This document shows, in pieces, positions 16,710-29,131 of a stretch of DNA of 41,183 bases. The notes beneath the pieces were generated by a model that saw only the letters and a list, made by a program, of their open reading frames with translations, was not told the DNA's origin and made no database searches. Source of the DNA: an uncultured Desulfobacterales bacterium (lineage in GTDB: Bacteria > Desulfobacterota > Desulfobacteria > Desulfobacterales > Desulfococcaceae); the NCBI GenBank assembly GCA_964346545.1, contig CAYFVR010000001.1, forward strand, positions 11,440 through 52,622, given 5' to 3'. Both the position numbers and the translations under genes were made by a program. How positions within the stretch are numbered: position 1 is the first letter of the stretch; every line of letters starts with the position of its first letter.

Positions 16710-16989
16710 TTTTTTCATCGTTTTCCCGAAGTGGGGCGATTCCCCATCGTCGCTACATCGTTATCCCCATATCCGCGCCGGACGGGTATTTATGGCGGAT
16801 TTTCACGATGAAATCCCTTGACAACACTATGCTTTTCTGAATAGGAAAGATCATCTTGGATTTTCCACCCCCGGCCGATCTCCCCCACGCGGAACCTCGC
16901 CGGGAGAGGGACCGGTTTCGCACGATCCTCGCCAAACACCGTCAAACCAGATGGTCAACCCCAATACCAGCATGAAAACGGAGATTCTT

Positions 16990-19104
16990 ATGGGCGAAGC
17001 ACGATTCAACCAGCGGCGGACGTCGTCGACGTCACGGAAATGGGTATTGCTTCTTTGCATGGGGCTATTACTTTTCGGTTGCGCCCACATGCCTTCTCCC
17101 CAGGAGATGGAAGCCGAGCGGGAGGCCAACGCCCGTCAGGACGTGGAAGCCATCAAGCCGGCCATGGGATACGGCAATTTCGGAGAAGCGCCGTTGACCC
17201 TGGAAGACTGCATCCGGTACGCCCTCGACAACAATCTGGAGATGCGCATCGCCCGGTTGAACGAGGAGATCGCCGACCAGGAAAGCCTGGTGGCCAAACT
17301 CCAAATGCTCCCCAGCCTCTCCGCCGACGCCACCTACAAGCGGCGGGACGTCCTTCGCAAGAGCGACGCCTACAACTGGCTGCTCGACGAGGACCAGCCG
17401 GATTTCACGGTGTCGGAGCTGAAGGACAACACTCGGGCCAACCTGACCCTCACCTGGAACATCCTGGACACCATGATGGCCTACGTCCGGGGCAACGCCT
17501 CGGAAATGCAGGAAGAGGTGATCCGCCGGGAACGGGCCCGCCAAGCCCAACAGCTGGCCCTGGACGTGACCCGGGCCTATTGGCACGCCGCGGCGGTGGA
17601 AGACGCTCTGGATTACGTCCACGTGGTGGAGGCCAATCTGAAGCAGGTAAAACGCAACATGGACCAGGCCGTGGCCCGGGGCAGCTACGACAGCATGGCC
17701 GCCTCGGACGCGGAGCTTCGGCTCAAGGAATTGGAGCTGACCATCCGCCAGCTCCAGGCCAACCTCTCCAGGGAACGGCTCCAGCTCGCCCAGCTCATGG
17801 GCCTCAACCAGAACGTCCAGTTCACCCTGGCCCGGCCGCCCATCAAGCCCATCGTCGCCAACCTTCCCCACACCAAGGAGTTGAACATCGACCGGCTGGA
17901 AGAATACGCCCTGCTCCACCGGCCGGAGCTGTTCGCCAGCGACATGCAGGTTCGCATCCAGAAGGAGGAGGCCAAGAACAAGGTTCTGGCCATGTTTCCC
18001 GGAATTTCCATCTTCGCCGGGGGCCATTACGAGGACAACCGGCTGTTGCTTCAGAACAACTGGGCCACCGTCGGCGCCGGCATTGGTTGGGAATTGCTGG
18101 ACCTGCCGGCCAAATTCATGTCCTACAAGGGACAGAAGAAGGCCATCCAGATGGCCGAGGCCCAGCGGCTGATGTCCACCGTGGGCGTCATCACCCAGGT
18201 CCACATCGCACTGCTCGACTACGCCATCAAGGTGGACCGGTTCCGCCTGCTGGACGAAACCTACGCCTTGGCCAACAACCTCTTCGACATGGCCCAGACC
18301 AAGAACCAGGCCGGCCGCCTGCCGGAACTGGCGGTCACCCAGCGCCACCTGGAGGAGATGGCGGCCAAACTTCGACGGGACGAGGCCGTGGTGGACATGC
18401 TGGTGGCCCACAAGCGGCTCTGCGTCAGCATCGGCATGGATCCCCTGGAATGCGATCAGCGGGGAATGCTGGCCTCGGCCGGCGGGAGCGGCGCCGGGCT
18501 TTCCGGGAACGTTCGGGAGCTGAACTACACCGCCACCACCGGCATGAGAAAATGGCGCAGCACCGAGACTGGCTACATCCACATTGGTCCCACGCCGCCG
18601 GAAATCGACCCCATTAGCGGTTTGGGTCCGGAATACTTTGTGGAGGTGACCAACGGCCAAGAGAGCGACGCGATTATGGCTATCACGGGCACGGAATCGG
18701 GCATGATTTCCGGAACAAGTTCGGGTCCCATCGAGGACGCCGACCTGGATACCTGGGGCGTAACCCCGCCGGTTTCCACCCGCGACGGCGGCATGAGTCG
18801 AAGTTCCGACGGCGCCCCCGGCTACGCCGGTCCGGCGGCCGACCGCTTCCTCTGGCAGGTGCAGATGGGCGCGTTCTCCGAGCCTTCCGGCCCCACCAAG
18901 CGAATGAGCGAGGTGGAGGCCCTGAACCTCCGCATGCTCGACACCCGCGACACGGCCATCACCACCGCCCGGGTGCAGGGAAACTTGTTGAATCGGGTTC
19001 GCGTCCGCGGTCTGACCCAGGCGGAAGCCCAGGAACTGGCCCGCGAGCTGCGGGGCCGGGGCGTGGACCATTGGGTCATCGCGCCGGGAAGCGTCCACTG
19101 GTAG
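16990..19104 (+). CDS. TolC-family outer-membrane factor lipoprotein with a C-terminal SPOR (peptidoglycan-binding) domain
   Basis: The start is set at ATG 16990 (GGAG at 16980-16983, 6-nt spacer), giving MGEARFNQRRTSSTSRKWVLLLCMGLLLFGC (lipobox-like). LTLEDCIRYALDNNLEMRIARLNEEIADQE and a duplicated coiled-coil architecture indicate an OEP/TolC fold. The last 85 aa (18847-19101) are FLWQVQMGAFSEPSG...LLNRVRVRGLTQAEAQELARELRGRGVDHWVI, which fits the SPOR pattern (VQxGAF ... RVRVGxxxxxxEAxxxxxxL). Confidence 0.8.
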   Translation: MGEARFNQRRTSSTSRKWVLLLCMGLLLFGCAHMPSPQEMEAEREANARQDVEAIKPAMGYGNFGEAPLTLEDCIRYALDNNLEMRIARLNEEIADQESLVAKLQMLPSLSADATYKRRDVLRKSDAYNWLLDEDQPDFTVSELKDNTRANLTLTWNILDTMMAYVRGNASEMQEEVIRRERARQAQQLALDVTRAYWHAAAVEDALDYVHVVEANLKQVKRNMDQAVARGSYDSMAASDAELRLKELELTIRQLQANLSRERLQLAQLMGLNQNVQFTLARPPIKPIVANLPHTKELNIDRLEEYALLHRPELFASDMQVRIQKEEAKNKVLAMFPGISIFAGGHYEDNRLLLQNNWATVGAGIGWELLDLPAKFMSYKGQKKAIQMAEAQRLMSTVGVITQVHIALLDYAIKVDRFRLLDETYALANNLFDMAQTKNQAGRLPELAVTQRHLEEMAAKLRRDEAVVDMLVAHKRLCVSIGMDPLECDQRGMLASAGGSGAGLSGNVRELNYTATTGMRKWRSTETGYIHIGPTPPEIDPISGLGPEYFVEVTNGQESDAIMAITGTESGMISGTSSGPIEDADLDTWGVTPPVSTRDGGMSRSSDGAPGYAGPAADRFLWQVQMGAFSEPSGPTKRMSEVEALNLRMLDTRDTAITTARVQGNLLNRVRVRGLTQAEAQELARELRGRGVDHWVIAPGSVHW

Positions 19105-19289: not shown

Positions 19290-22200
19290 ATGTTGAACCT
19301 AATGAAGCTGGAAAATCGGATTGTGCTGGACGCGGCGGGCATGGACGCCGCCATGGACCATGCCGCCGACGGACCGGATGACGTCGGACCCAATCCGGAC
19401 GCGGAATCCGCCTCAATTCCCGACGCCCCCGACGTACATGCCGGCGCCGTCGCCGAAGTCGCCACCATGCTGTCCGCCGACGAAGGGGACGCCGCCGACG
19501 GAAGGCCGGAAGACATCGGCCCGATTCTCCGCCCCGCCGAGGGCTCCGACCCGTTGAACGTCGTGCTGATCGCCGACAATCTCCCGGATTTGCAAACGCT
19601 AAGGGACGCGATTCATCCCGACGCCAAAGTCATCGAATACGACGCCGACGCGGAATCGGCCCAAGAGGTGGTCGCTCGCGTGACCGCCGTCGCCGAATCG
19701 AACGGGTCGATTGAATCGCTGACCTTGTTGTCCCACGGCGGCAGTGGCTTTTTCCAGCTCGGCAACGAACGCATAACTACGGACAATCTCTCCGACAACG
19801 CGACCGCATGGAGAGCGCTGGATGAAGCCATGGAAGATGGCGGCCAGATTCATCTGATGGGCTGCAACGTGGCCGAAGACTCGGAAACCGGTCTGACCTT
19901 GCTGAACGGGGTGGCCGAGGCCACCCAAGCCACCGTTTTTTCCTCCAACGACATCACCGGCAAGGGGGGCGACTGGGAGCTGGAGACCGCTTCGGACGAG
20001 GCGCCCGGTCGGGCCGATCTTCCGCTGGACGTCGCCCTTCTGGGAGATTACGCCGGCCAGCTTCAGGACCCGCCGGTACAGTTCGTGCCGCCCACGGAAG
20101 TTTTCGGCCGGGAGGACGCCCGATCGGGCATCGTCATCACCCTGTTCGTTCGGAATGATGTCGATCCGGATTCCCTCCAAATCCAGGCAACCCCCGCCGG
20201 GGGAGACGACGTTATCCGACTGTCCGACATCGATCAGCCCGAGTTGGGCAGTCAAGTGCCTTATAACCCGCAACCCGGTCAGGTCCGGCCCCCCGCCGGC
20301 TACACCGGCTTCACCTGGGTGGCGTTCTACTCGCCTCAGGCCAACCAGTTTCACCCCAACGGCGATGAAACACCCATTACCGTTAGCGTCCAGTCGGGGA
20401 ACGGCGGCCAGGCGGTGGACGCAACCGAAACGTACACGCTGACCGTTGATCCCCTGAACGACGCGCCTTTTCTCAGGGAAGGTCTCGAAAGCACGGGGGA
20501 CTTCGTCGATGATTTCCGGAACGTTGGCACCATCGACATTGGCACTGTCGAAGAGGACGCCACCGATCCCGCAGGGATTCCACTGTCCACGCTCATCAAT
20601 CCGGCCATCTTGGACGTGGACGACGGTGATCCCACCGGCATTGCCATTATCGGAACGGATGTCGGCGGGGGCGGTGTCTGGCAGTTCAACAGCGGCGGCG
20701 GATGGGTGGATGTCGGCCCGGTATCCGCCGAAAGCGCGTTGGTGCTGGCGTCCAGCGTCCAGGTTCGCTTCCTCCCGCAAGGCCAATGGAGCCAGGAACA
20801 AACCGAGGCGACACTTGAATTCCGGGCCTGGGACCAGACCGACGGCAACGCCTCCGGCGCAACCGGGGTCAACACCGAGGTCGGCCCCCGCCCCTCCGAG
20901 CCGGGTGACACCGCGGCCTACAGCAAGGCGACCGGCAATCTGCGCGTCGAGGTCACCCCGGTGAACGACGCTCCGGAACCGCCAACCGTTGAAATCGACG
21001 ATCCCTACATCGAAAACGGGTTCGTGACGCCCGACCAGACCGGCGTCCCCAAGGAACTGGGCATCACCCTCGGCGAAGACCCCGACGACACCGATTTCAC
21101 CGAGGTGGTCGTGGAAATCACCGACGGCTTCCAGAACGATTCCCGGGGCGTGGACGTTCTTTTCTTGGCGGGGAGCCTTCCGTCCACCATCCAGGCCCAG
21201 GTCGAAACCGGGCGGGTGGTGTTCACGCCCGCCGACGGACTGGAATCGGCGCCGATTTCGGATTTTCAATTGGCCGTGGACCAGGTGCGGTACGAACATG
21301 CGGGCGGCCCCGATCTCCTGGGTCCGGGCGAGGAAGCGAGCGCCCTGAACGGCGACGATCCCATCGAGCGTCCCCGCGCCATCGAAGTCACCGTTTCCGA
21401 CGCCAACGCCAGCGAAGCCGACAACGGCATTCAGGATTCCACCGGCGAGGGAGAACTCCCGGTGGACGCGGTCAACGACGGGCCCGACGCCGAGCCGGAA
21501 AGCGACGAGCTGGTCTATTCCCTGAACGTGAACCAGCCCACCCGTCTTGCGCTGGTGGACAATACCTTCACGCTGGAGGATGTGGACGACGTGGATTTGG
21601 CCACGTCCAACCTGCCCCGGGGGGTCGGCGAAATTCGGGTGCGGATTGAAGATGGCTACACCGCCGCCGTGGACGAACTGGAATTTGACGGCGCGGGCTT
21701 CAACGACGTTTCCGTCAGCGTTCAGGAAGGGGGGCGGACCCTGGTGCTGACCCCGACCAACGGCCAGGCATTCACCCTTTCCCGCGCCGAAGACGTGGCC
21801 CGCCAAGTATCCTACGTCAACAACGCCGCCGACGCGGCCCAGGCCAACGAAGACGCGGATCGGGTCGTCGCCATCACCGTCACCGACAACAATTCCGGCG
21901 GCGAGGGCGACTTTTCGGAACCCCAGATTCCCGCGCCGACCGATCCGCAATTCGTGGACGGCCCCAAAAGCGACACGGTCACCCGAACCATTCAAATCGA
22001 CGCCGACGCGCCGCCCGAACTCGATTTCGGGGACGGCATCTTCGAGGACAACGGGAATCCCAACGATCCCTTCTTTTCGCCCCGGACGCCCGACCAGGTG
22101 GAAGGCTTCACGGTCCAAGACATCGTCGCCAGCTTCAACCTGCCCAACCAGCCGCCCAACCAGGGGGTCGAGGCGCTGGCCATCACGGCGGTGGACGACG

Positions 22201-24674
22201 CCAACGGCCAGTGGCAATTTCTCGATTCCACCGGCCAGTGGGCGCCCATCGACAACGGCCAGCTCGACGAGGCCAACGCCCTGTTGCTGGGTCCCACGGA
22301 CCAGATTCGGTTCATTCCGGACGAAAATTTCAACACCGACGAGGAGCCCGGCGCCGTCACGCCGACCATCACGGCCAAGTCATGGGACACCGCCGAATTC
22401 GCCGGCACCCCGGGGACTTTCGTGAACACCGTGGGCGACAACGTCGCCTTCAGCCAGGAAGGCACGGGCGAGTTGCCGGTGCTGGCCGTCAACGACCGGC
22501 CGGACATCGTTTTGGGTCCCAACCTGGACCCGGACAACGACGACGTGGTGAACGAACAACAACGGCTGGACGAGAGCGGCCGAATCACCTTCACCGGCAT
22601 CACTCTTCAGGACATCGACCTGGCCAAGGGGGAGGAAGACGGTCCCAATCCCGGCCAGATCGACCTGACGGTTTCGGTGGATCGGGCCAGCAGCCAAGTC
22701 TTTCTGGACAGTCTGGCCGGCGTCACGATTATTGGCGGAGCCAACGGCTCCCAGACCGTGACCATCCGGGGCGATTTGGCCGACGTCAGCTCCGCCATTC
22801 AGACCGGCCTTCGCTACGAGGCCGACCTGAACGAGCTGAACAACGCGGCGTCGGATCAAGCCTACGACACGATTAACATCACCTCCAACGACCTGGGCAA
22901 CGCCGGTCTTCCCGGTTCGCTCCAGGACGCGGACAACATCCAGATCGCCCTCTTCCCGGGGGACGCCCCGCCAGAGATCGACCTGGACGAAAACGACGAC
23001 GGCGGCGCCGACCCGGAAAACGACATCCCGCCGGCGGGTCCCCAGGCCCCGGGGAACGAGGACACCGGCAACTACAACGTCTTCTTCATCGAAGACAGCG
23101 ACTGCACCCCGGTGCTCATCGCCGACGAAGACATCCTGATCGCCGACGACAATGGCCTGATCCAGCGCATGACCGTGGAGTTGACAAATCGGCTGGATTC
23201 CGGCGGCCCGGCCTCCCCGCCGCCGGAACAGGGAGGGCAACTCTTGGCGCTGGACCAGAACGCCGAGTCCGGACTGCTGGAATCCCTGGGCTTTAGTCAG
23301 GACGTACTGGACGCCGTCAACGCCGATCCAAACACCAATATCACGGTGAACGTTGCCCAGCAGACCAACGCCGCCGGCCAGGTGGTGGCCTTGACGCTGG
23401 AATTCCAGGGAATCGCGTCCACCGAGGCCTATCAGCAAATCCTGAACACGGTCACCTACGACAACGACTCTCAAAACCCCAGCGACACCACCCCCGCCGG
23501 GGAGAGCGTGCGCCGGGTGGCCGCGGTGACGGTGACCGACGTGCCCATCGACGGCGAGGGCCCGGGCCAGAGCAGCACCGCCTTTTCCCGAATCGCCATC
23601 ATCCCCGTCAACGACGCGCCGGTCAACCAGGTTCCCGGTGAAATTATCGTTCCCTCCGGCACCATCGTGGACATCGGCGGCCAGCTCGACGTGGGCGACG
23701 TGGAAGGGCCGGCGGAGATGTCCGTCAACCTGGGCGTCATCTTCGGCGTCTTGAACGTCGCGGAGGGCCAAGGCGTCCAGATCGACGGCAACGGCACGGC
23801 GGACCTGACCCTGACCGGCTCCATCGAAGCGGTCAACGCGGTTCTGGATTCGCTGTCCTACGCGCCGCCGGCGAATTTCACCGGCGAGGACACCTTGACC
23901 GTCACCTCCAACGATTTCGGATACGAGGGAATCAACCCGTCCTTCGTGGGAAGCAACGGCGTCCGTTGCGTGGTTGCGCCTTTCGACGAGGCGGGAAATC
24001 CCATCGTGGACGAACGCGGCGACCTCGTCCCCGACGGGCCCGACGAAAAAACTCCCAACGATCGGGACGCCCTGACCGACGTGGACACCATTCTCATCCG
24101 GGTGGCCCAATCCGATCCGGACACCCTGCCGGAACCGCCGACGCCGCCCCCGAGCCCGCCGCTCCAGCCCATCGCCCCGCCGGACGCCGACGGTCCCGAC
24201 GGCATCAGCCCCGGCCCCGTCAATCTCCCCGGCATGGTGGGCGTAACCGGCGGGCAGGCCGGCATTTCGGCCCGCGGCATCGGCCCCGGCGGCGAGGGCT
24301 TCATGGACTTCTGCTCCATCGAGGAGGCCCTGCGCAGCCATCTGGGCTGCCGCTTCGCCAACACCCTGAATCCGGAATCCCAGTTCAGTTCCCTCTCCTG
24401 GGGCGACATGACCGACCTGGGCTGGAAGCCGCCCTCGCTGTATCTGGACGAGGAGTACGACCTGTATTCCCAGCTCTTCATGGAAGAGCCGGGCGACCCG
24501 GGCTTCAACGTGGAGGCGGGCGCCTTCGGCGTGGACCTGGGCGGCCTGCCCGAAACGCCGGAGCGGGTCTTCCGGGAAGGCCAAAACCGGGAAACCTTCA
24601 ACGAGATGGAACCCAACGAAATTCGCGAAGCCTTTTTCGCCAACCGGAAAAACCTTGATCGAACCGGACGATAA
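19290..24674 (+). CDS. Giant (1,794 aa) acidic surface/secreted-type protein with an LExR-IxL N-terminal motif, a DUF4347 domain, multiple cadherin-like/VCBS-like modules punctuated by xVNDxP, a Pro-rich linker and a distinct C-terminal domain
   Basis: GGGAGG lies 8 nt upstream of ATG 19290. The N-terminus MLNLMKLENRIVLDAAGMDAAMDHAAD has no hydrophobic signal peptide. The DUF4347 region (about 19551-19986) reads NVVLIADNLPDLQTLRDAI...VIEYDAD...IESLTLLSHGGSGFFQLGNERIT...IHLMGCNVAE...ATVFSSNDITGKGGDWELE. N-D-x-P boundary motifs (LNDAP, VNDAP, VNDGP, VNDRP, VNDAP) occur near 20457, 20964, 21474, 22491 and 23609. The Pro linker is at about 24126-24200. Confidence 0.9.
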   Translation: MLNLMKLENRIVLDAAGMDAAMDHAADGPDDVGPNPDAESASIPDAPDVHAGAVAEVATMLSADEGDAADGRPEDIGPILRPAEGSDPLNVVLIADNLPDLQTLRDAIHPDAKVIEYDADAESAQEVVARVTAVAESNGSIESLTLLSHGGSGFFQLGNERITTDNLSDNATAWRALDEAMEDGGQIHLMGCNVAEDSETGLTLLNGVAEATQATVFSSNDITGKGGDWELETASDEAPGRADLPLDVALLGDYAGQLQDPPVQFVPPTEVFGREDARSGIVITLFVRNDVDPDSLQIQATPAGGDDVIRLSDIDQPELGSQVPYNPQPGQVRPPAGYTGFTWVAFYSPQANQFHPNGDETPITVSVQSGNGGQAVDATETYTLTVDPLNDAPFLREGLESTGDFVDDFRNVGTIDIGTVEEDATDPAGIPLSTLINPAILDVDDGDPTGIAIIGTDVGGGGVWQFNSGGGWVDVGPVSAESALVLASSVQVRFLPQGQWSQEQTEATLEFRAWDQTDGNASGATGVNTEVGPRPSEPGDTAAYSKATGNLRVEVTPVNDAPEPPTVEIDDPYIENGFVTPDQTGVPKELGITLGEDPDDTDFTEVVVEITDGFQNDSRGVDVLFLAGSLPSTIQAQVETGRVVFTPADGLESAPISDFQLAVDQVRYEHAGGPDLLGPGEEASALNGDDPIERPRAIEVTVSDANASEADNGIQDSTGEGELPVDAVNDGPDAEPESDELVYSLNVNQPTRLALVDNTFTLEDVDDVDLATSNLPRGVGEIRVRIEDGYTAAVDELEFDGAGFNDVSVSVQEGGRTLVLTPTNGQAFTLSRAEDVARQVSYVNNAADAAQANEDADRVVAITVTDNNSGGEGDFSEPQIPAPTDPQFVDGPKSDTVTRTIQIDADAPPELDFGDGIFEDNGNPNDPFFSPRTPDQVEGFTVQDIVASFNLPNQPPNQGVEALAITAVDDANGQWQFLDSTGQWAPIDNGQLDEANALLLGPTDQIRFIPDENFNTDEEPGAVTPTITAKSWDTAEFAGTPGTFVNTVGDNVAFSQEGTGELPVLAVNDRPDIVLGPNLDPDNDDVVNEQQRLDESGRITFTGITLQDIDLAKGEEDGPNPGQIDLTVSVDRASSQVFLDSLAGVTIIGGANGSQTVTIRGDLADVSSAIQTGLRYEADLNELNNAASDQAYDTINITSNDLGNAGLPGSLQDADNIQIALFPGDAPPEIDLDENDDGGADPENDIPPAGPQAPGNEDTGNYNVFFIEDSDCTPVLIADEDILIADDNGLIQRMTVELTNRLDSGGPASPPPEQGGQLLALDQNAESGLLESLGFSQDVLDAVNADPNTNITVNVAQQTNAAGQVVALTLEFQGIASTEAYQQILNTVTYDNDSQNPSDTTPAGESVRRVAAVTVTDVPIDGEGPGQSSTAFSRIAIIPVNDAPVNQVPGEIIVPSGTIVDIGGQLDVGDVEGPAEMSVNLGVIFGVLNVAEGQGVQIDGNGTADLTLTGSIEAVNAVLDSLSYAPPANFTGEDTLTVTSNDFGYEGINPSFVGSNGVRCVVAPFDEAGNPIVDERGDLVPDGPDEKTPNDRDALTDVDTILIRVAQSDPDTLPEPPTPPPSPPLQPIAPPDADGPDGISPGPVNLPGMVGVTGGQAGISARGIGPGGEGFMDFCSIEEALRSHLGCRFANTLNPESQFSSLSWGDMTDLGWKPPSLYLDEEYDLYSQLFMEEPGDPGFNVEAGAFGVDLGGLPETPERVFREGQNRETFNEMEPNEIREAFFANRKNLDRTGR

Positions 24675-24722: not shown

Positions 24723-26912
24723 ATGACCAACGACGCCGATTCCCCCCGCCAAAATCCGGCCGGAGCCGCGCCTTCCGCTCCCGCCACCCTGGAAGACTAC
24801 CTGGAAACGCCTTGGCGGGGGTTGCGCCCGGATTTGAAACTGTTCCCCGGCCCGGTGGAATACGACGGCCAGCGTTCCTGGGTGCTGGAAGACCCGGTGC
24901 GGGGCAACACCTATCGGCTGGGCCACGCCGAAGGCGAATTGATCTACCGCCTCGTCGCCGGCCGCTCCCCCGAGTCGGCCCTTCGCCACCTGTACCAGAC
25001 CACCACCCTCCGGCCCACCCCCGCGGACGCGATCGCCTTCCTGACCATGCTCCAGCGGGAGCGGCTGACCCGGCTGCCCGCCGACTTCGTCGAAAAATCG
25101 GCCGCGGCCGGCGGCGACGCGGGCGAGCCTTCGGCGTTGGACCAACTTCGTCAAGGAAGCATCTTTTTCCGGATTCCCCTGCTCCGTCCCGACGGATTCC
25201 TCTCGCGAACCGTCCGCTGGGCGTCCATGCTCTGGTCTCCCCCCCTCCGCTGGTTCTACCTCCTGTGCGGGCTGACCGGCCTGGCGCTCACGGCGCAGGA
25301 GATCGAGGCCTACCTGGGCACGGTCAACTACCTGTTCACCCCCCGGGGCGGGCTGGCGTTCCTGGCCTGCCTCGTCGCGCTCAAAATCGGCCACGAATTC
25401 GCCCACGCCTACGCCGCCAAGGCCATGGGGCTCCACGTCCGAAGCATGGGAATCATGCTCATCGTCGTCTGGCCGCTGCTCTACACCGACACCACCGACG
25501 CCTGGAAACTGCCCGACCGCCGGCGGCGCATGGCCATCAGCGCCGCCGGGGTGACGTTCGAACTGGCGGTGGCCGGGGTCGCCCTGTTGCTCTGGGCCAG
25601 CGTCCCGGACGGGATCGCCCGCAGCATCTTCTTTTTCCTTTCCAGCGCCTCCCTCATTTCCACGGTCCTGATCAACCTCAACCCGTTCATGCGCTACGAC
25701 GGATACTATCTGCTGATGGACCTGTGGGGCATCGACAACCTGCGGCCCCGGGCCTTCGCGGTGCTGCGCCACGGCGCCCGGCGGCTGCTGCTGGACTGGA
25801 AGGCCCCGTCGCCGGAAATTCATCCCCACCGGCGGGCCATGCTGGTCTACGGCTTTTTCGCGGCCCTCTACCGGCTCTTCATCGGGGCGACCATCGCCCT
25901 TGCGGTCTACCACCTGCTGTTCCCCGCCCTGGGGCTGGCGGTCTTCCTGCTTCAGCTCTGGCTGTTCCTGATTCGGCCGGTCATCGGGGAGGTTCGCGCC
26001 GCATGGCGGGGCCGGCGCCACTGGGGCTCCCGCTTTCGGATCGCGGCCAGCGGCCTGGGATTCGCCGGCCTGCTGGCCCTTCTGGTTCTGCCCCTGCCCC
26101 GCTTCGAGACGGTTCCCTCCCTGCTGCTGTTCCAGGAGGCGATCCGGGTGGAAGCCCCGTCCCCCGGGCGGCTCTCCGAGGCGCTCCCCGCCGAGGGACG
26201 AACCGTGACCGAGGGCGAACCCCTGGTTCGGCTAACCAGCGACACCCTGGCCTTCGAACGGGAACAGGCCGAATTCGATCTTCAAAAGGTCCGGGCCGGC
26301 ATCCGGAATCTGGGGACCAGCCCGGAGCAGGTCGCCTACGGCCGCTGGCTGGAGGCCGAGGCGGAGCGACTCCAGAGCATTCTGGACAAATATCGGGAGG
26401 CCATGGCCCAGATGGAAATCCGGGCGCCCGCCGAAGGCCGGATCGTGGACGTCAACCCGGATCTGTACGCCGGGGCCTTTCTGCGCCGGGGGGTTCACCT
26501 GTTCACGGTGATGGCGCCGTCCCGTCACGAGGTCAAGGCCTTCGTCCACGAAAAGGCCATGCCGGACCTTCGAGTGGCGGCCATCCGCGAGGCGACCGTC
26601 CGCCTGCCCGCCCCGGAGATCCCGGCCATCCGGGTCCGGCTGGCGGAGCGGAGCCGGTTTCCGGCGCATCGCCTGCCCAACCAAAGTCTGTTTGACATCG
26701 CCGGCGGCCCTATTGTATCCGTGGAAGATTCCCTGGGACGCCGGCCCCGGGACGCCTATTTCACCCTGACCTTCGAGGTGCCGGACCCGCCGCCGGGCCG
26801 CTTGGCCCATGGGCTTCCGTCCCGGATCTGGCTGCGAACGGCGGGGCGGCCGCTCTTGGTCCGCGCCGCCGCCGGCATTTGGCAACCCCTCTCCGAGCGA
26901 GGACTTTTCTGA
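24723..26912 (+). CDS. Fusion protein: cytoplasmic N-terminal domain, polytopic M50 (site-2-protease-like) zinc metalloprotease, and a C-terminal HlyD/membrane-fusion-protein-like periplasmic region
   Basis: HEFAH (25392-25406) sits inside a TM segment (LACLVALKIGHEFAHAYAAKAMG), and NLNPFMRYDG (25674-25703) is the NxxPxxxxDG second M50 motif. After further TM helices come lipoyl/beta-barrel-like adaptor motifs: IRVEAPSPGRLSEALPAEGRTVTEGEPLVRL, coiled-coil FEREQAEFDLQKVRAG...LEAEAERLQSILDKYREAMAQMEIRAPAEGRIVDV. Confidence 0.8.
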   Translation: MTNDADSPRQNPAGAAPSAPATLEDYLETPWRGLRPDLKLFPGPVEYDGQRSWVLEDPVRGNTYRLGHAEGELIYRLVAGRSPESALRHLYQTTTLRPTPADAIAFLTMLQRERLTRLPADFVEKSAAAGGDAGEPSALDQLRQGSIFFRIPLLRPDGFLSRTVRWASMLWSPPLRWFYLLCGLTGLALTAQEIEAYLGTVNYLFTPRGGLAFLACLVALKIGHEFAHAYAAKAMGLHVRSMGIMLIVVWPLLYTDTTDAWKLPDRRRRMAISAAGVTFELAVAGVALLLWASVPDGIARSIFFFLSSASLISTVLINLNPFMRYDGYYLLMDLWGIDNLRPRAFAVLRHGARRLLLDWKAPSPEIHPHRRAMLVYGFFAALYRLFIGATIALAVYHLLFPALGLAVFLLQLWLFLIRPVIGEVRAAWRGRRHWGSRFRIAASGLGFAGLLALLVLPLPRFETVPSLLLFQEAIRVEAPSPGRLSEALPAEGRTVTEGEPLVRLTSDTLAFEREQAEFDLQKVRAGIRNLGTSPEQVAYGRWLEAEAERLQSILDKYREAMAQMEIRAPAEGRIVDVNPDLYAGAFLRRGVHLFTVMAPSRHEVKAFVHEKAMPDLRVAAIREATVRLPAPEIPAIRVRLAERSRFPAHRLPNQSLFDIAGGPIVSVEDSLGRRPRDAYFTLTFEVPDPPPGRLAHGLPSRIWLRTAGRPLLVRAAAGIWQPLSERGLF

Positions 26913-26913
26913 C

Positions 26914-27717
26914 ATGGCCCGTTTTCGGCTGACGCCGCACCTTGTCCGCGCCCTTATGGCGCTTCTTCTCTCCATTCCCGCAACCGCTTTCGCCCAAGAC
27001 GCCCCGGCCCCCGGGGAATCCCCCGCGGATTCCATGGCGCCGGCGGAGCCGCCCGGCGTGTTCAAGCCCTTCCCCGTGGTGTTCGAGGCCCGCCAGAAGG
27101 CGGTGCTTTCGGCCGAGCGGGCGGGCGCCCTCACCAGCCTCAAGGCCGACGTGGGCGACACCGTCAAAAAAGGCGCGGTGATCGCCCAGGTGGACGTGGG
27201 GGAGGCCGCCCTCCGAAAAAAACGGGGGGAAGTGGCCCTCGGCCATCTGGAAAAGCAAATTCAGGAACTGACCCAGCTCAACCAGCGGGGACTGGCCACC
27301 AACGAGGAGGTGCAAAAGGTCCGCATGGAGCGGGACGTGACCCGGGCCGACGTGCAGATCTACAAGCGGCAGATCGCCCAGTCCACCATTCGCGCGCCGT
27401 TCGCCGGCATGGTGGTCCGCCGTCACGTGGAGCCCCACGAGTGGGTCACCGCCGGCCAGCCGGTGTTGGACATGGTCAATCTGGACCGCATCCGGGCCGT
27501 CGCCAACCTGCCCGCCCACATCGCCGTGCGGCTCAAGGCGGGCGACATCCACACCCTGTACATCCATGATCTGGAAGCCGAGATGAAGGGCACGGTGGAC
27601 GCCGTGGCCCCGGAGGTGGACGAGCGAAGCAATACCGCCCAAGTCATCTGGAGCGTGGACGCCGGCGGCCGACGGCTGTTGCCGGGCATGAAGGGAGAGG
27701 TCCGGGTTGAGCCGTAA
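26914..27717 (+). CDS. Periplasmic adaptor (membrane fusion protein, HlyD/RND-adaptor family), Sec-exported
   Basis: ATG 26914 lies 1 nt after the upstream stop. The signal peptide is MARFRLTPHLVRALMALLLSIPATAFA-QD. Motifs: AERAGALTSLKADVGDTVKKGAVIAQVD (lipoyl-like), a coiled coil, then TIRAPFAGMVVRRHVEPHEWVTAGQPVLDMVNLDRIRAVANLP. Confidence 0.8.
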   Translation: MARFRLTPHLVRALMALLLSIPATAFAQDAPAPGESPADSMAPAEPPGVFKPFPVVFEARQKAVLSAERAGALTSLKADVGDTVKKGAVIAQVDVGEAALRKKRGEVALGHLEKQIQELTQLNQRGLATNEEVQKVRMERDVTRADVQIYKRQIAQSTIRAPFAGMVVRRHVEPHEWVTAGQPVLDMVNLDRIRAVANLPAHIAVRLKAGDIHTLYIHDLEAEMKGTVDAVAPEVDERSNTAQVIWSVDAGGRRLLPGMKGEVRVEP

Positions 27718-29131
27718 ACCGCCGGAAATCGGGGAGACCATCGGGGGCGCGGCCCCCGACGGAACGAGCGCGGCGGGACGAAGCGTCCCGCCGGCCGCGG
27801 GGGCGACCCGGGAGCAGGTGCTGACCCGGTTCATCCGGATGTGCACGGCCGTCTTTTCCACCCCGGTCTCCCAAGAGGCCGCCGCCATCGCCGTCAACCG
27901 GGTGTCGGAGCTGACCCGGGTGGATCGGGCGGTCCTGGTCCGGCTGGACGGAAAGCCAACCATCGCCGCCGTCAACGGCGGCGGCGCGGCGGCCCAGGAC
28001 AGCGCTTTCGCCGACGCGGTGGAAACGGCCCGAAAACGGTTCGGCCGCCGGCCCGAGGCGGTGGTGGTGCCGGTCGTGTCCGACGCCGAACGGGAATCGG
28101 CCCCCTCGCTCCACGCCGTTCAGCGGGCCATGGGCGGCGCCCAGATTCTGTGGCTGCCGCTCTGGCTCTCCAGCGATCAGAGCGTCCCGCCGCGCCAAGC
28201 CCTGTGGCTGGAGCGGTGGCACGGCAACCGCTGGGAGCGGGGCGACGTGGAGCTGTTGCAGCACGCCGCCCTCTTTCTGGGCCACGGTCTCCTCCGGTCC
28301 CGGACGCGGCCCAAGGCGCGGGGCCGATACCTTCGGCTGGGGCTTCTGGCCGCGCTGCTGCTTTTTCTGGCCATGCCGGTCACCTCTCGGGTCACCGCCC
28401 CCGCTCGGGTGGCGCCCGACCGTCCCCACCATATTTTCGCGCCCATGGACGGCATCATCAAGGAGTTGCTGGTGCGGCCCGGCCAATGGGTGGAGCCCGG
28501 CGACGTGCTCTACCGCTACGACGCCCGGGTGCTGGACAAACGGCTGGACGAGGCCTTTCGCCAGGTGGCGGTGGAACGGGCCAAGCTGGCGCGGCTCCAG
28601 GGCGCGGCCCACCGAGATCCCGAGGCCCGGGCCGAACTGCCGGTTCAGGATTTGGAGGTCAAGCGGGCCGAGGCGGAAACCGTCTTTTACGCCCAGCAGC
28701 AGGATCGGGCCGACGTGCGCACCGCCCAGCCCGGCGTCGTCGTGCTGGACGATCCCGACGCCCTGATCGGCGCGGCGGTCCAGACCGGCCAGGCGGTCAT
28801 GAGCGTGGCCGACCCGGCCCAGACCAAGCTGCGGCTCCGGGTGCCCGCCGGCGACGTGGGCTTTCTGGAGGAAGGCGCCCGGGTCTCCATCCGGCTGGAC
28901 AGCAATCCGCTTCGGAACCTGCCGGCCATCATCACCCGGATCGGCTTCGAGGTCCGCCTCTCCGAAACCGGGACGCCGTCGGTGGCCGCCGACGCCGTCT
29001 GGGTGGGCGACCCGCCCGACGCGCAGCCGGGCCAGAAAGGCACGGCCCGCATCTTCGGCCCCTCCACCGTCATGGCCTTTCAAATTCTGCGCAAACCGTT
29101 CATCGCGCTCCGATCCATCACCGGCTTTTGA
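27707..29131 (+). CDS. HlyD-family adaptor with an N-terminal cytoplasmic GAF-like domain and one TM helix
   Basis: TTG 27707 follows a GGGAGAGG SD and overlaps the upstream stop by 11 nt. The N-terminal part of about 190 aa (FIRMCTAVFSTPVSQEAAAIAVNRVSELTRVDRAVLVRLDG ... QILWLPLW ... WERGDVELLQHAALFLGHGL) reads like a GAF fold. The TM helix is LRLGLLAALLLFLAMPV. Adaptor motifs follow: IFAPMDGIIKELLVRPGQWVEPGDVLYRYD ... DVRTAQPGVVVLDD ... GQAVMSVADPAQTKLRLRVP. Confidence 0.75.
   Translation: MSRKPPEIGETIGGAAPDGTSAAGRSVPPAAGATREQVLTRFIRMCTAVFSTPVSQEAAAIAVNRVSELTRVDRAVLVRLDGKPTIAAVNGGGAAAQDSAFADAVETARKRFGRRPEAVVVPVVSDAERESAPSLHAVQRAMGGAQILWLPLWLSSDQSVPPRQALWLERWHGNRWERGDVELLQHAALFLGHGLLRSRTRPKARGRYLRLGLLAALLLFLAMPVTSRVTAPARVAPDRPHHIFAPMDGIIKELLVRPGQWVEPGDVLYRYDARVLDKRLDEAFRQVAVERAKLARLQGAAHRDPEARAELPVQDLEVKRAEAETVFYAQQQDRADVRTAQPGVVVLDDPDALIGAAVQTGQAVMSVADPAQTKLRLRVPAGDVGFLEEGARVSIRLDSNPLRNLPAIITRIGFEVRLSETGTPSVAADAVWVGDPPDAQPGQKGTARIFGPSTVMAFQILRKPFIALRSITGF

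Follow-up and report, generated by a model that had tools for sequence, protein, structure and literature searches.

Introduction

TolC-type ducts are usually pictured as being held by the outer membrane and their adaptors only. Peptidoglycan-binding modules do occur on other envelope-spanning machines, i.e., the AMIN domains of the PilQ secretin and the OmpA-like domains of MotB, Pal and TagL of the type VI secretion system, and SiiA is the wall-binding module of the type I secretion system (T1SS) for the giant adhesin of Salmonella pathogenicity island 4 (SPI4). SPOR domains are carried by inner-membrane anchors (FtsN, DamX, DedD), a lytic enzyme (RlpA) and an amidase (CwlC). Here we report on a gene for a TolC-family outer-membrane factor (OMF) that ends in a SPOR domain. 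It lies in a stretch of 41,183 nucleotides, hereafter the window, from an uncultured Desulfobacterales bacterium (assembly GCA_964346545.1, contig CAYFVR010000001.1, positions 11,440 to 52,622) and is followed by genes for a giant DUF4347 protein, a fusion of an M50 metalloprotease with an HlyD-type adaptor, and two further HlyD-type adaptors.

The OMF of the window resembles the TolC-family lipoprotein OMFs (OprM, CusC/SilC, OprN, CmeC; cf. TolC) in its two OEP repeats, its barrel fold with an equatorial belt, its N-terminal lipobox Cys and the presence of HlyD-type adaptor genes nearby. It differs from them in a C-terminal extension of ca. 220 residues that ends in the SPOR domain and in its partners, i.e., the M50 protease-adaptor fusion and two adaptors. 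The SPOR domain is like those of RlpA, FtsN, DamX, DedD and CwlC in its RNP-type fold, the QxGAF motif of strand beta-1, the basic RVRV patch of strand beta-3 and its C-terminal position behind a disordered linker, whereas it sits on an outer-membrane channel and has a slightly longer alpha1-beta2 insert, and its binding to glycan is predicted from sequence. The arrangement follows the same logic as that of PilQ, MotB, Pal, TagL and SiiA, in which a machine that spans the envelope is held in place or positioned by its wall-binding module. However, SPI4 has its wall-binding subunit as a protein of its own, which is MotB-like and resides in the inner membrane, while in the window the SPOR domain forms part of the TolC-type duct.

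The first-pass annotation of the window, made from the sequence alone, had stated that OMFs normally lack a peptidoglycan-binding module. We found none described in the open-access literature that was searched, nor any description there of an OMF-SPOR fusion or of the present gene module. The available portion of a 2021 review on tripartite pumps and T1SS likewise yielded no mention of a peptidoglycan-binding domain on a TolC-type duct (PMC8277102).

Results

The C-Terminal Tail of the OMF Is a SPOR Domain

Positions 18847-19104 of the window, for which the first-pass annotation had noted a fit to the SPOR pattern, encode residues 633-717 and include the stop codon; the residues run FLWQVQMGAFSEPSG...VDHWVIAPGSVHW, in agreement with that annotation. 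Sequence, family profile, fold and binding-site residues all confirmed that the tail is a genuine SPOR domain (residues 627-712; 18829..19086, + strand). Scanned alone, it scores 25.5-25.6 bits (E 1.7e-5) with Pfam SPOR (PF05036; gathering cut-off 21 bits), the match spanning residues 635-710, and individual SPOR matches were obtained for 32 of the 36 aligned tails of the family, with a best E of 1.5e-9. The sole significant match of the tail profile in the PDB is the SPOR domain of Bacillus subtilis CwlC (1x60, E 4e-7). A search of 1.84 billion representative sequences with the same profile returned 3,626 proteins at E<=1e-3, which identifies the tail as an ordinary member of the SPOR domain family, as opposed to a look-alike confined to these OMFs. 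OMFs make up ca. 10 of the best 150 representatives matched, a search that could not count all OMF-SPOR fusions. A homologue search restricted to the tail region returned just the five closest relatives; this is due to the few 5-residue words that such tails have in common and is uninformative with respect to other architectures.

The AlphaFold model of the tail (pLDDT, the predicted local distance difference test, 86.3) has the RNP-type fold with a four-stranded antiparallel sheet and the order beta-alpha-beta-beta-alpha-beta, with strand 7-14, helix 18-29, strands 40-47 and 50-60, helix 62-74 and strand 80-82. Among PDB entries, Foldseek ranked RlpA SPOR structures with and without denuded glycan (6i09, 6i05) first, followed by CwlC SPOR in third place; the RlpA match has a template modelling (TM) score of 0.75 and a root-mean-square deviation of 2.4 Å, and FtsN SPOR is found at rank 14. 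The genome encodes two other SPOR proteins (L001, L002).

Conservation of Putative Glycan-Contact Residues

In the RlpA SPOR domain the side chains of Q270, R302, R309 and R311 contact the denuded glycan, with L307 providing a hydrophobic contact (Alcorlo et al., 2019; PMC6895207). The contact residues were equated in that study with Q251, R285 and W283 of FtsN, and the glutamine of strand beta-1 (RlpA Q270, FtsN Q251) contacts both N-acetylmuramic acid and N-acetylglucosamine (PMC6895207). When the family profile is aligned with RlpA by hidden Markov model (HMM), LQVGAF pairs with vQvGaF and ILHRVRL with llnRvRv, so that Q638, L680, R682 and R684 are the counterparts of RlpA Q270, L307, R309 and R311. 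The putative contact residues are thus encoded on the + strand at 18862-18864 (Q638), 18994-18996 (R682) and 19000-19002 (R684), with L680 in addition. All of 54 homologues share Q638 and R684, and at least 90% of them have R682. The basic patch of the sheet (RlpA R302/R309/R311, FtsN R285) is present through R682 and R684, and the R302 contact is partly matched.

The Fusion Is Conserved Across the Family

Approximately 90 full-length homologues, with 34-92% identity to the OMF of the window, were obtained from Desulfonema magnum, D. limicola and D. ishimotonii, from metagenome-assembled genomes (MAGs) of Desulfococcaceae, Desulfobacteraceae and Gammaproteobacteria, and from Thauera; some are already tagged with both Pfam domains in sequence databases. 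The proposed fusion of SPOR to a TolC-family OMF was found throughout: the tail HMM matches 87 of 91 homologues in frame, the four misses being truncated or fragmentary entries. In a survey of 40 species-representative loci, 38 of which contain the 3' end of the OMF gene, the SPOR tail occurs in the OMF reading frame in 36. The in-frame fusion is also present in complete Desulfonema genomes and in many independent assemblies. Mean identity between the OMF of the window and its homologues is 0.67 for the body, compared with 0.49 for the SPOR domain and 0.17 for the linker, as is expected for a domain under selection that is carried by a free spacer. Purifying selection thus acts on the SPOR tail.

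The two exceptions in the survey are both from Gammaproteobacteria MAGs (L049:9680-12028 and L050:9779-12031). They have a related tail from which QxGAF is gone, while the second half of the domain (LYRMRAT...GLTE.EAR.LC) is kept, and this tail is probably a decayed or repurposed SPOR domain. At another locus (L044:9812-12047, i.e., G045:C30) the OMF gene is spread over two frames with an in-frame TAA, and the SPOR tail is still readable; the split may stem from pseudogenisation or from faulty assembly.

Phylogeny of the OMF Body and Other Wall-Binding Tails

A genome scan at the order level revealed a class of paralogous OMFs with 33-36% identity that align over the body only; these also adjoin DUF4347 giants and lack SPOR. 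One of them, encoded beside a DUF4347 gene (L010:1688-3568, - strand; P0242), carries an OmpA-family tail (PF00691, E 4.7e-18) at the position of the SPOR domain. This tail is shared by two close relatives and occurs in degenerate form in two more distant ones (P0243-P0246). The idea that every OMF beside a DUF4347 giant has a wall-binding tail did not hold, since the tails of L008 and L011 are short and that of L009 comprises ca. 110 residues with no Pfam match, and several longer paralogues of the sister clade have no recognisable tail domain. The last ca. 110 residues of the L009 protein (L009:8464-10266, + strand) bear, by eye, a faint likeness to a small wall-binding or LysM-like module. 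A distant OMF of 741 residues (P0093, 27% identity), whose 90% cluster comprises 131 member sequences, has a C-terminal Ig-like He_PIG domain followed by SPOR (23 bits). P0093 and the OMF-OmpA proteins (L010/P0242-P0244) are like the OMF of the window in that a TolC-type body is combined with a peptidoglycan-binding domain at the C-terminus; they differ in the wall-binding fold (OmpA) or in the Ig-like spacer and in falling outside the SPOR clade.

In a FastTree phylogeny of the OMF body, based on 438 match columns, the SPOR-tailed OMFs form a single clade (28 out of 28; support 0.95). The sister clade (support 0.99) contains the OmpA subclade (support 1.0), and P0093 falls far outside both, so that SPOR was gained there separately. 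The body tree therefore indicates one old gain of SPOR with subsequent retention, and two or more independent gains of wall-binding tails elsewhere.

The Lipoprotein OMF Body and the Composite Spacer

The OMF gene (16951..19104, + strand) is the longest open reading frame (ORF), of 717 residues. Its true start is likely ATG 16990 (M14), which lies 13 codons inside this ORF (16951-16989) and is preceded, 6 nt upstream, by GGAG. It is followed by a lipoprotein signal peptide (16990..17082, + strand) with the sequence MGEARFNQRRTSSTSRKWVLLLCMGLLLFGC, which ends in the lipobox LFG-C with Cys44 at 17080-17082. In the alignment of 54 homologues M14 is nearly invariant and C44 invariant. The ATG at 16990 with its GGAG and the invariant lipobox Cys44 imply that the mature protein is a lipoprotein OMF that starts at Cys44.

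The OMF body comprises residues 84-494 (17200..18432, + strand), as delimited by the secondary structure of the model and by Foldseek. Pfam OEP (PF02321, E 1.2e-40) covers it in two stretches, which represent two OEP repeats, each built in the full-length AlphaFold model (pLDDT 76.7) from a beta-hairpin and two helices of 72 and 36 residues. The protomer in this model has the fold of a beta-barrel, a long alpha-barrel and an equatorial domain. All 44 matches of the full model in the PDB at E<=1e-3 are OMFs (among them TolC, SilC, OprN, CusC, OprM, CmeC, VceC and MtrE), with TM scores of up to 0.74, and SPOR structures rank directly below them. With NCBIfam the body scored 53 bits for TIGR01844 (type I secretion TolC; cut-off 225) and 38.9 bits for TIGR01845 (NodT efflux lipoprotein; cut-off 210). 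Both values are far below the cut-off, and the body is thus a divergent member of the OMF superfamily that belongs to neither curated subfamily. The last helix of the body (residues 459-494) is in the model of the 36-residue, half-length type, as in known OMFs, the C-terminus of which sits in the equatorial domain according to the 2021 review (PMC8277102).

Between body and SPOR domain the first-pass annotation had recognised a Gly/Ser/Thr/Pro-rich linker of ca. 130 residues. This description applies to the disordered part, but a small folded module lies within the same stretch, and the spacer is, as modelled, composite. It begins with a flexible, poorly conserved segment (residues 495-529; 18433..18537, + strand; identity 0.28, gap fraction 0.24), in which the pLDDT falls to 47-57 and residues 510-519 are disordered in the model. 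This leads into a predicted small folded rubredoxin-like module (residues 530-568; 18538..18654, + strand), delimited by the model and a motif of its homologues and modelled as three short strands at residues ca. 530-566 with a pLDDT of ca. 80. The spacer ends in a Gly/Ser/Thr/Pro-rich linker, disordered in the model (residues 569-626; 18655..18828, + strand; pLDDT 34-39 across residues 570-621), in which these four residues account for a fraction of 0.50 and which has an identity of 0.17 and a gap fraction of 0.41. Across the family the distance between body and SPOR domain varies from 70 to 139 residues.

In most homologues the module reads WxCxxCGY...PPxxCPxC and is precomputed in Pfam as rubredoxin-like (PF21349). 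That of the window reads KWRSTETGY...EIDPISG, with all four metal-binding Cys replaced (S537, T540, D553 and S556); PF21349 matches the protein with an E of only 0.15 and the CxxC...CxxC metal-binding site is absent. This pattern is kept in 20 of 36 species loci and also in P0002, which is 91% identical to the OMF of the window and retains all four Cys. P0001, a protein from a second assembly that differs in 2 residues, has the Cys-less version as well, which excludes a read error. The replacement looks like a recent and complete loss of a presumed metal site (window 18550-18620; residues 534-557), and the module is nonetheless predicted to be folded. Other subclades are devoid of the rubredoxin-like module and have long Gly/Ser/Asp-rich spacers instead.

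Gene Neighbourhood

Downstream of the OMF gene and on the same strand lies the gene for the DUF4347 giant (19290..24674, + strand; PF14252, E 5.2e-29), a protein of 1794 residues that is the presumed cargo or partner of the duct. It is followed by the gene for the M50 metalloprotease-HlyD-type adaptor fusion (24723..26912, + strand; Peptidase_M50 and HlyD_3), which was also scored as an NF041824-like HExxH protease with RND_mfp, and by two genes for HlyD-type periplasmic adaptors (26809-27717 and 27707-29131, + strand; HlyD_3, HlyD_D23, RND_mfp, type_I_hlyD). Domain scans of these four genes following the OMF revealed no ABC, RND or MFS domain. A GAF-cyclase gene is also found downstream on the same strand.

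In most related loci a DUF4347 homologue lies directly downstream of the OMF, and the M50-HlyD and HlyD genes are conserved too; Desulfonema magnum, a Gammaproteobacteria MAG and Thauera all have this gene set behind the OMF. Of the 40 surveyed loci, 36 contain one or more of these genes, and the remaining four are short or cut contigs. The association of the fusion with M50-HlyD genes, about which the first-pass annotation had asked whether it always occurs, holds for nearly all loci with enough flanking sequence, with P0070 as an exception. Upstream of the OMF gene on the Desulfonema magnum chromosome (L004:7183-9471) there are ca. 20 tandem units of 118 bp with 96-98% identity, each with an inverted repeat (CCGGAGTGC...GCACTCCGG), and gene calling turns this array into a ladder of ORFs of ca. 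47 residues.

Discussion

Function of the SPOR Tail

We consider it likely that, through its SPOR tail, the outer-membrane duct of the module formed by the OMF, the DUF4347 giant, the M50-HlyD fusion and the two HlyD-type adaptors is tethered to peptidoglycan. We infer that the OMF would be exported, lipidated at Cys44 and assembled as a TolC-like trimer, in which the last helix of the body would end at the periplasmic equatorial belt, roughly at the depth of the sacculus. With E. coli envelope dimensions this belt lies ca. 5 nm below the outer membrane, near the sacculus. From there the spacer of ca. 130 residues, i.e., the flexible segment, the Cys-less rubredoxin-like knuckle and the disordered linker of ca. 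55 residues, would carry the SPOR domain, and spacers of 70-139 residues would let the three SPOR domains of a trimer reach glycan strands. SPOR would then bind glycan stripped of its peptides by amidases via Gln638 and the basic patch of Arg682 and Arg684. The genome has one Amidase_3 gene, so that denuded glycan can be made. Such binding would fix or position the duct on the cell wall; its purpose may be to brace the duct for the 1794-residue protein, to place it where denuded glycan abounds, or both.

Several observations weigh against this tether. Scanned with the whole protein, PF05036 reaches only 19.9 bits, just below the gathering cut-off. The position of RlpA R302 is V676 in register and is not conserved as Arg, with R675 adjoining. 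The loss of QxGAF in two gammaproteobacterial species implies that canonical glycan binding is dispensable in some lineages, and sister-clade OMFs that lie beside DUF4347 giants and have no wall-binding tail show that a tether is not obligatory for such modules. Finally, P0070, a divergent SPOR-tailed OMF, is encoded between lnt and polysaccharide genes, away from the module, which makes the link between SPOR-tailed OMFs and the module very strong but not absolute.

Some of these observations would fit a tail that does not bind peptidoglycan and in which the RNP/SPOR fold has been reused for contact with a protein inside the machine, for example as a docking site for an adaptor, the M50-HlyD fusion or the giant protein. 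The borderline Pfam score in the whole protein and the retention of the tail in lineages that lost QxGAF are in line with this, as is the presence in the module of three adaptor-type proteins. Nevertheless, we regard such a role as quite improbable, since it is not the fold alone but the glycan-contact residues that are invariant across ca. 50 diverse homologues, the tail profile retrieves 3,626 ordinary SPOR proteins, and the presence of an unrelated peptidoglycan-binding fold (OmpA) at the same position in the sister clade is hard to square with it. That the fusion itself is an artefact of assembly or annotation, in which a frameshift or sequencing error joined a separate SPOR gene to the OMF, has a negligible chance of being true. 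The long low-complexity spacer between the domains is the sole hint in this direction, and it is ruled out by the in-frame position of the tail in 36 of 38 species-representative loci and in 87 of 91 homologues, the latter drawn from numerous separate assemblies that include complete Desulfonema genomes; the second assembly, that of P0001, has the same ORF. Both ways in which the first-pass annotation envisaged being wrong, a tail that does not significantly match SPOR and a tail that is a separate ORF created by a frameshift, are thus contradicted by the data.

A narrower version of the tether, along the lines of the first-pass annotation, is that the SPOR domain mainly serves to localise the duct to the septum, recruiting it to septa or cross-walls. 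Export of the giant protein would then take place specifically at cell-cell junctions or new poles, e.g., in filamentous bacteria of the Desulfonema type. Many of the carriers are related to Desulfonema or the Desulfococcaceae, and Desulfonema species are filamentous gliders. The glycan-contact residues are conserved, and all characterised SPOR domains bind denuded glycans that are enriched at the septal ring (PMC6895207). Septal localisation is possible, yet we hold it to be doubtful, because the sister clade has an OmpA-type domain at the same position, carriers extend beyond Desulfonema-type filament formers to Thauera species and Gammaproteobacteria MAGs, and the tails of two species are degenerate and lack the key Gln. 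Domains of the OmpA family are not specific for the septum and can bind peptidoglycan at any site of the sacculus. Furthermore, integral outer-membrane proteins diffuse little after insertion, so that enrichment at the septum would need capture during insertion. Based on the OmpA tail of the sister clade, carriers such as Thauera and the two degenerate tails, attachment to the wall is a safer common denominator than targeting to the septum; as characterised SPOR domains concentrate at septa, it is reasonable to expect, secondarily, an enrichment at division sites. A more far-reaching extension of the tether, which we think unlikely, is that the SPOR, OmpA and Ig-plus-SPOR tails mark these ducts as the load-bearing wall anchors of an apparently pump-less machine for the export and retention of giant proteins. 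The DUF4347 giant would stay threaded in the duct, through which pulling forces would pass to the sacculus, and in Desulfonema-type filaments the affinity of SPOR for denuded glycan would in addition concentrate the ducts at cross-walls, where they could serve filament cohesion or gliding traction.

Implications

The OMF fold, the SPOR domain and the principle of wall-binding modules were all known previously; what we could not find described in the open-access literature that was searched is a wall-binding domain on a TolC-type duct itself. Wall attachment looks like a selected trait: the retention of SPOR throughout its clade and the separate gains of wall-binding tails in relatives suggest selection for attachment or positioning of the duct on the wall. 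With this, an outer-membrane channel joins the protein types known to carry SPOR domains, and the tail, which is small and soluble, provides a handle on a widespread and hitherto undescribed export system of giant adhesin-like proteins.

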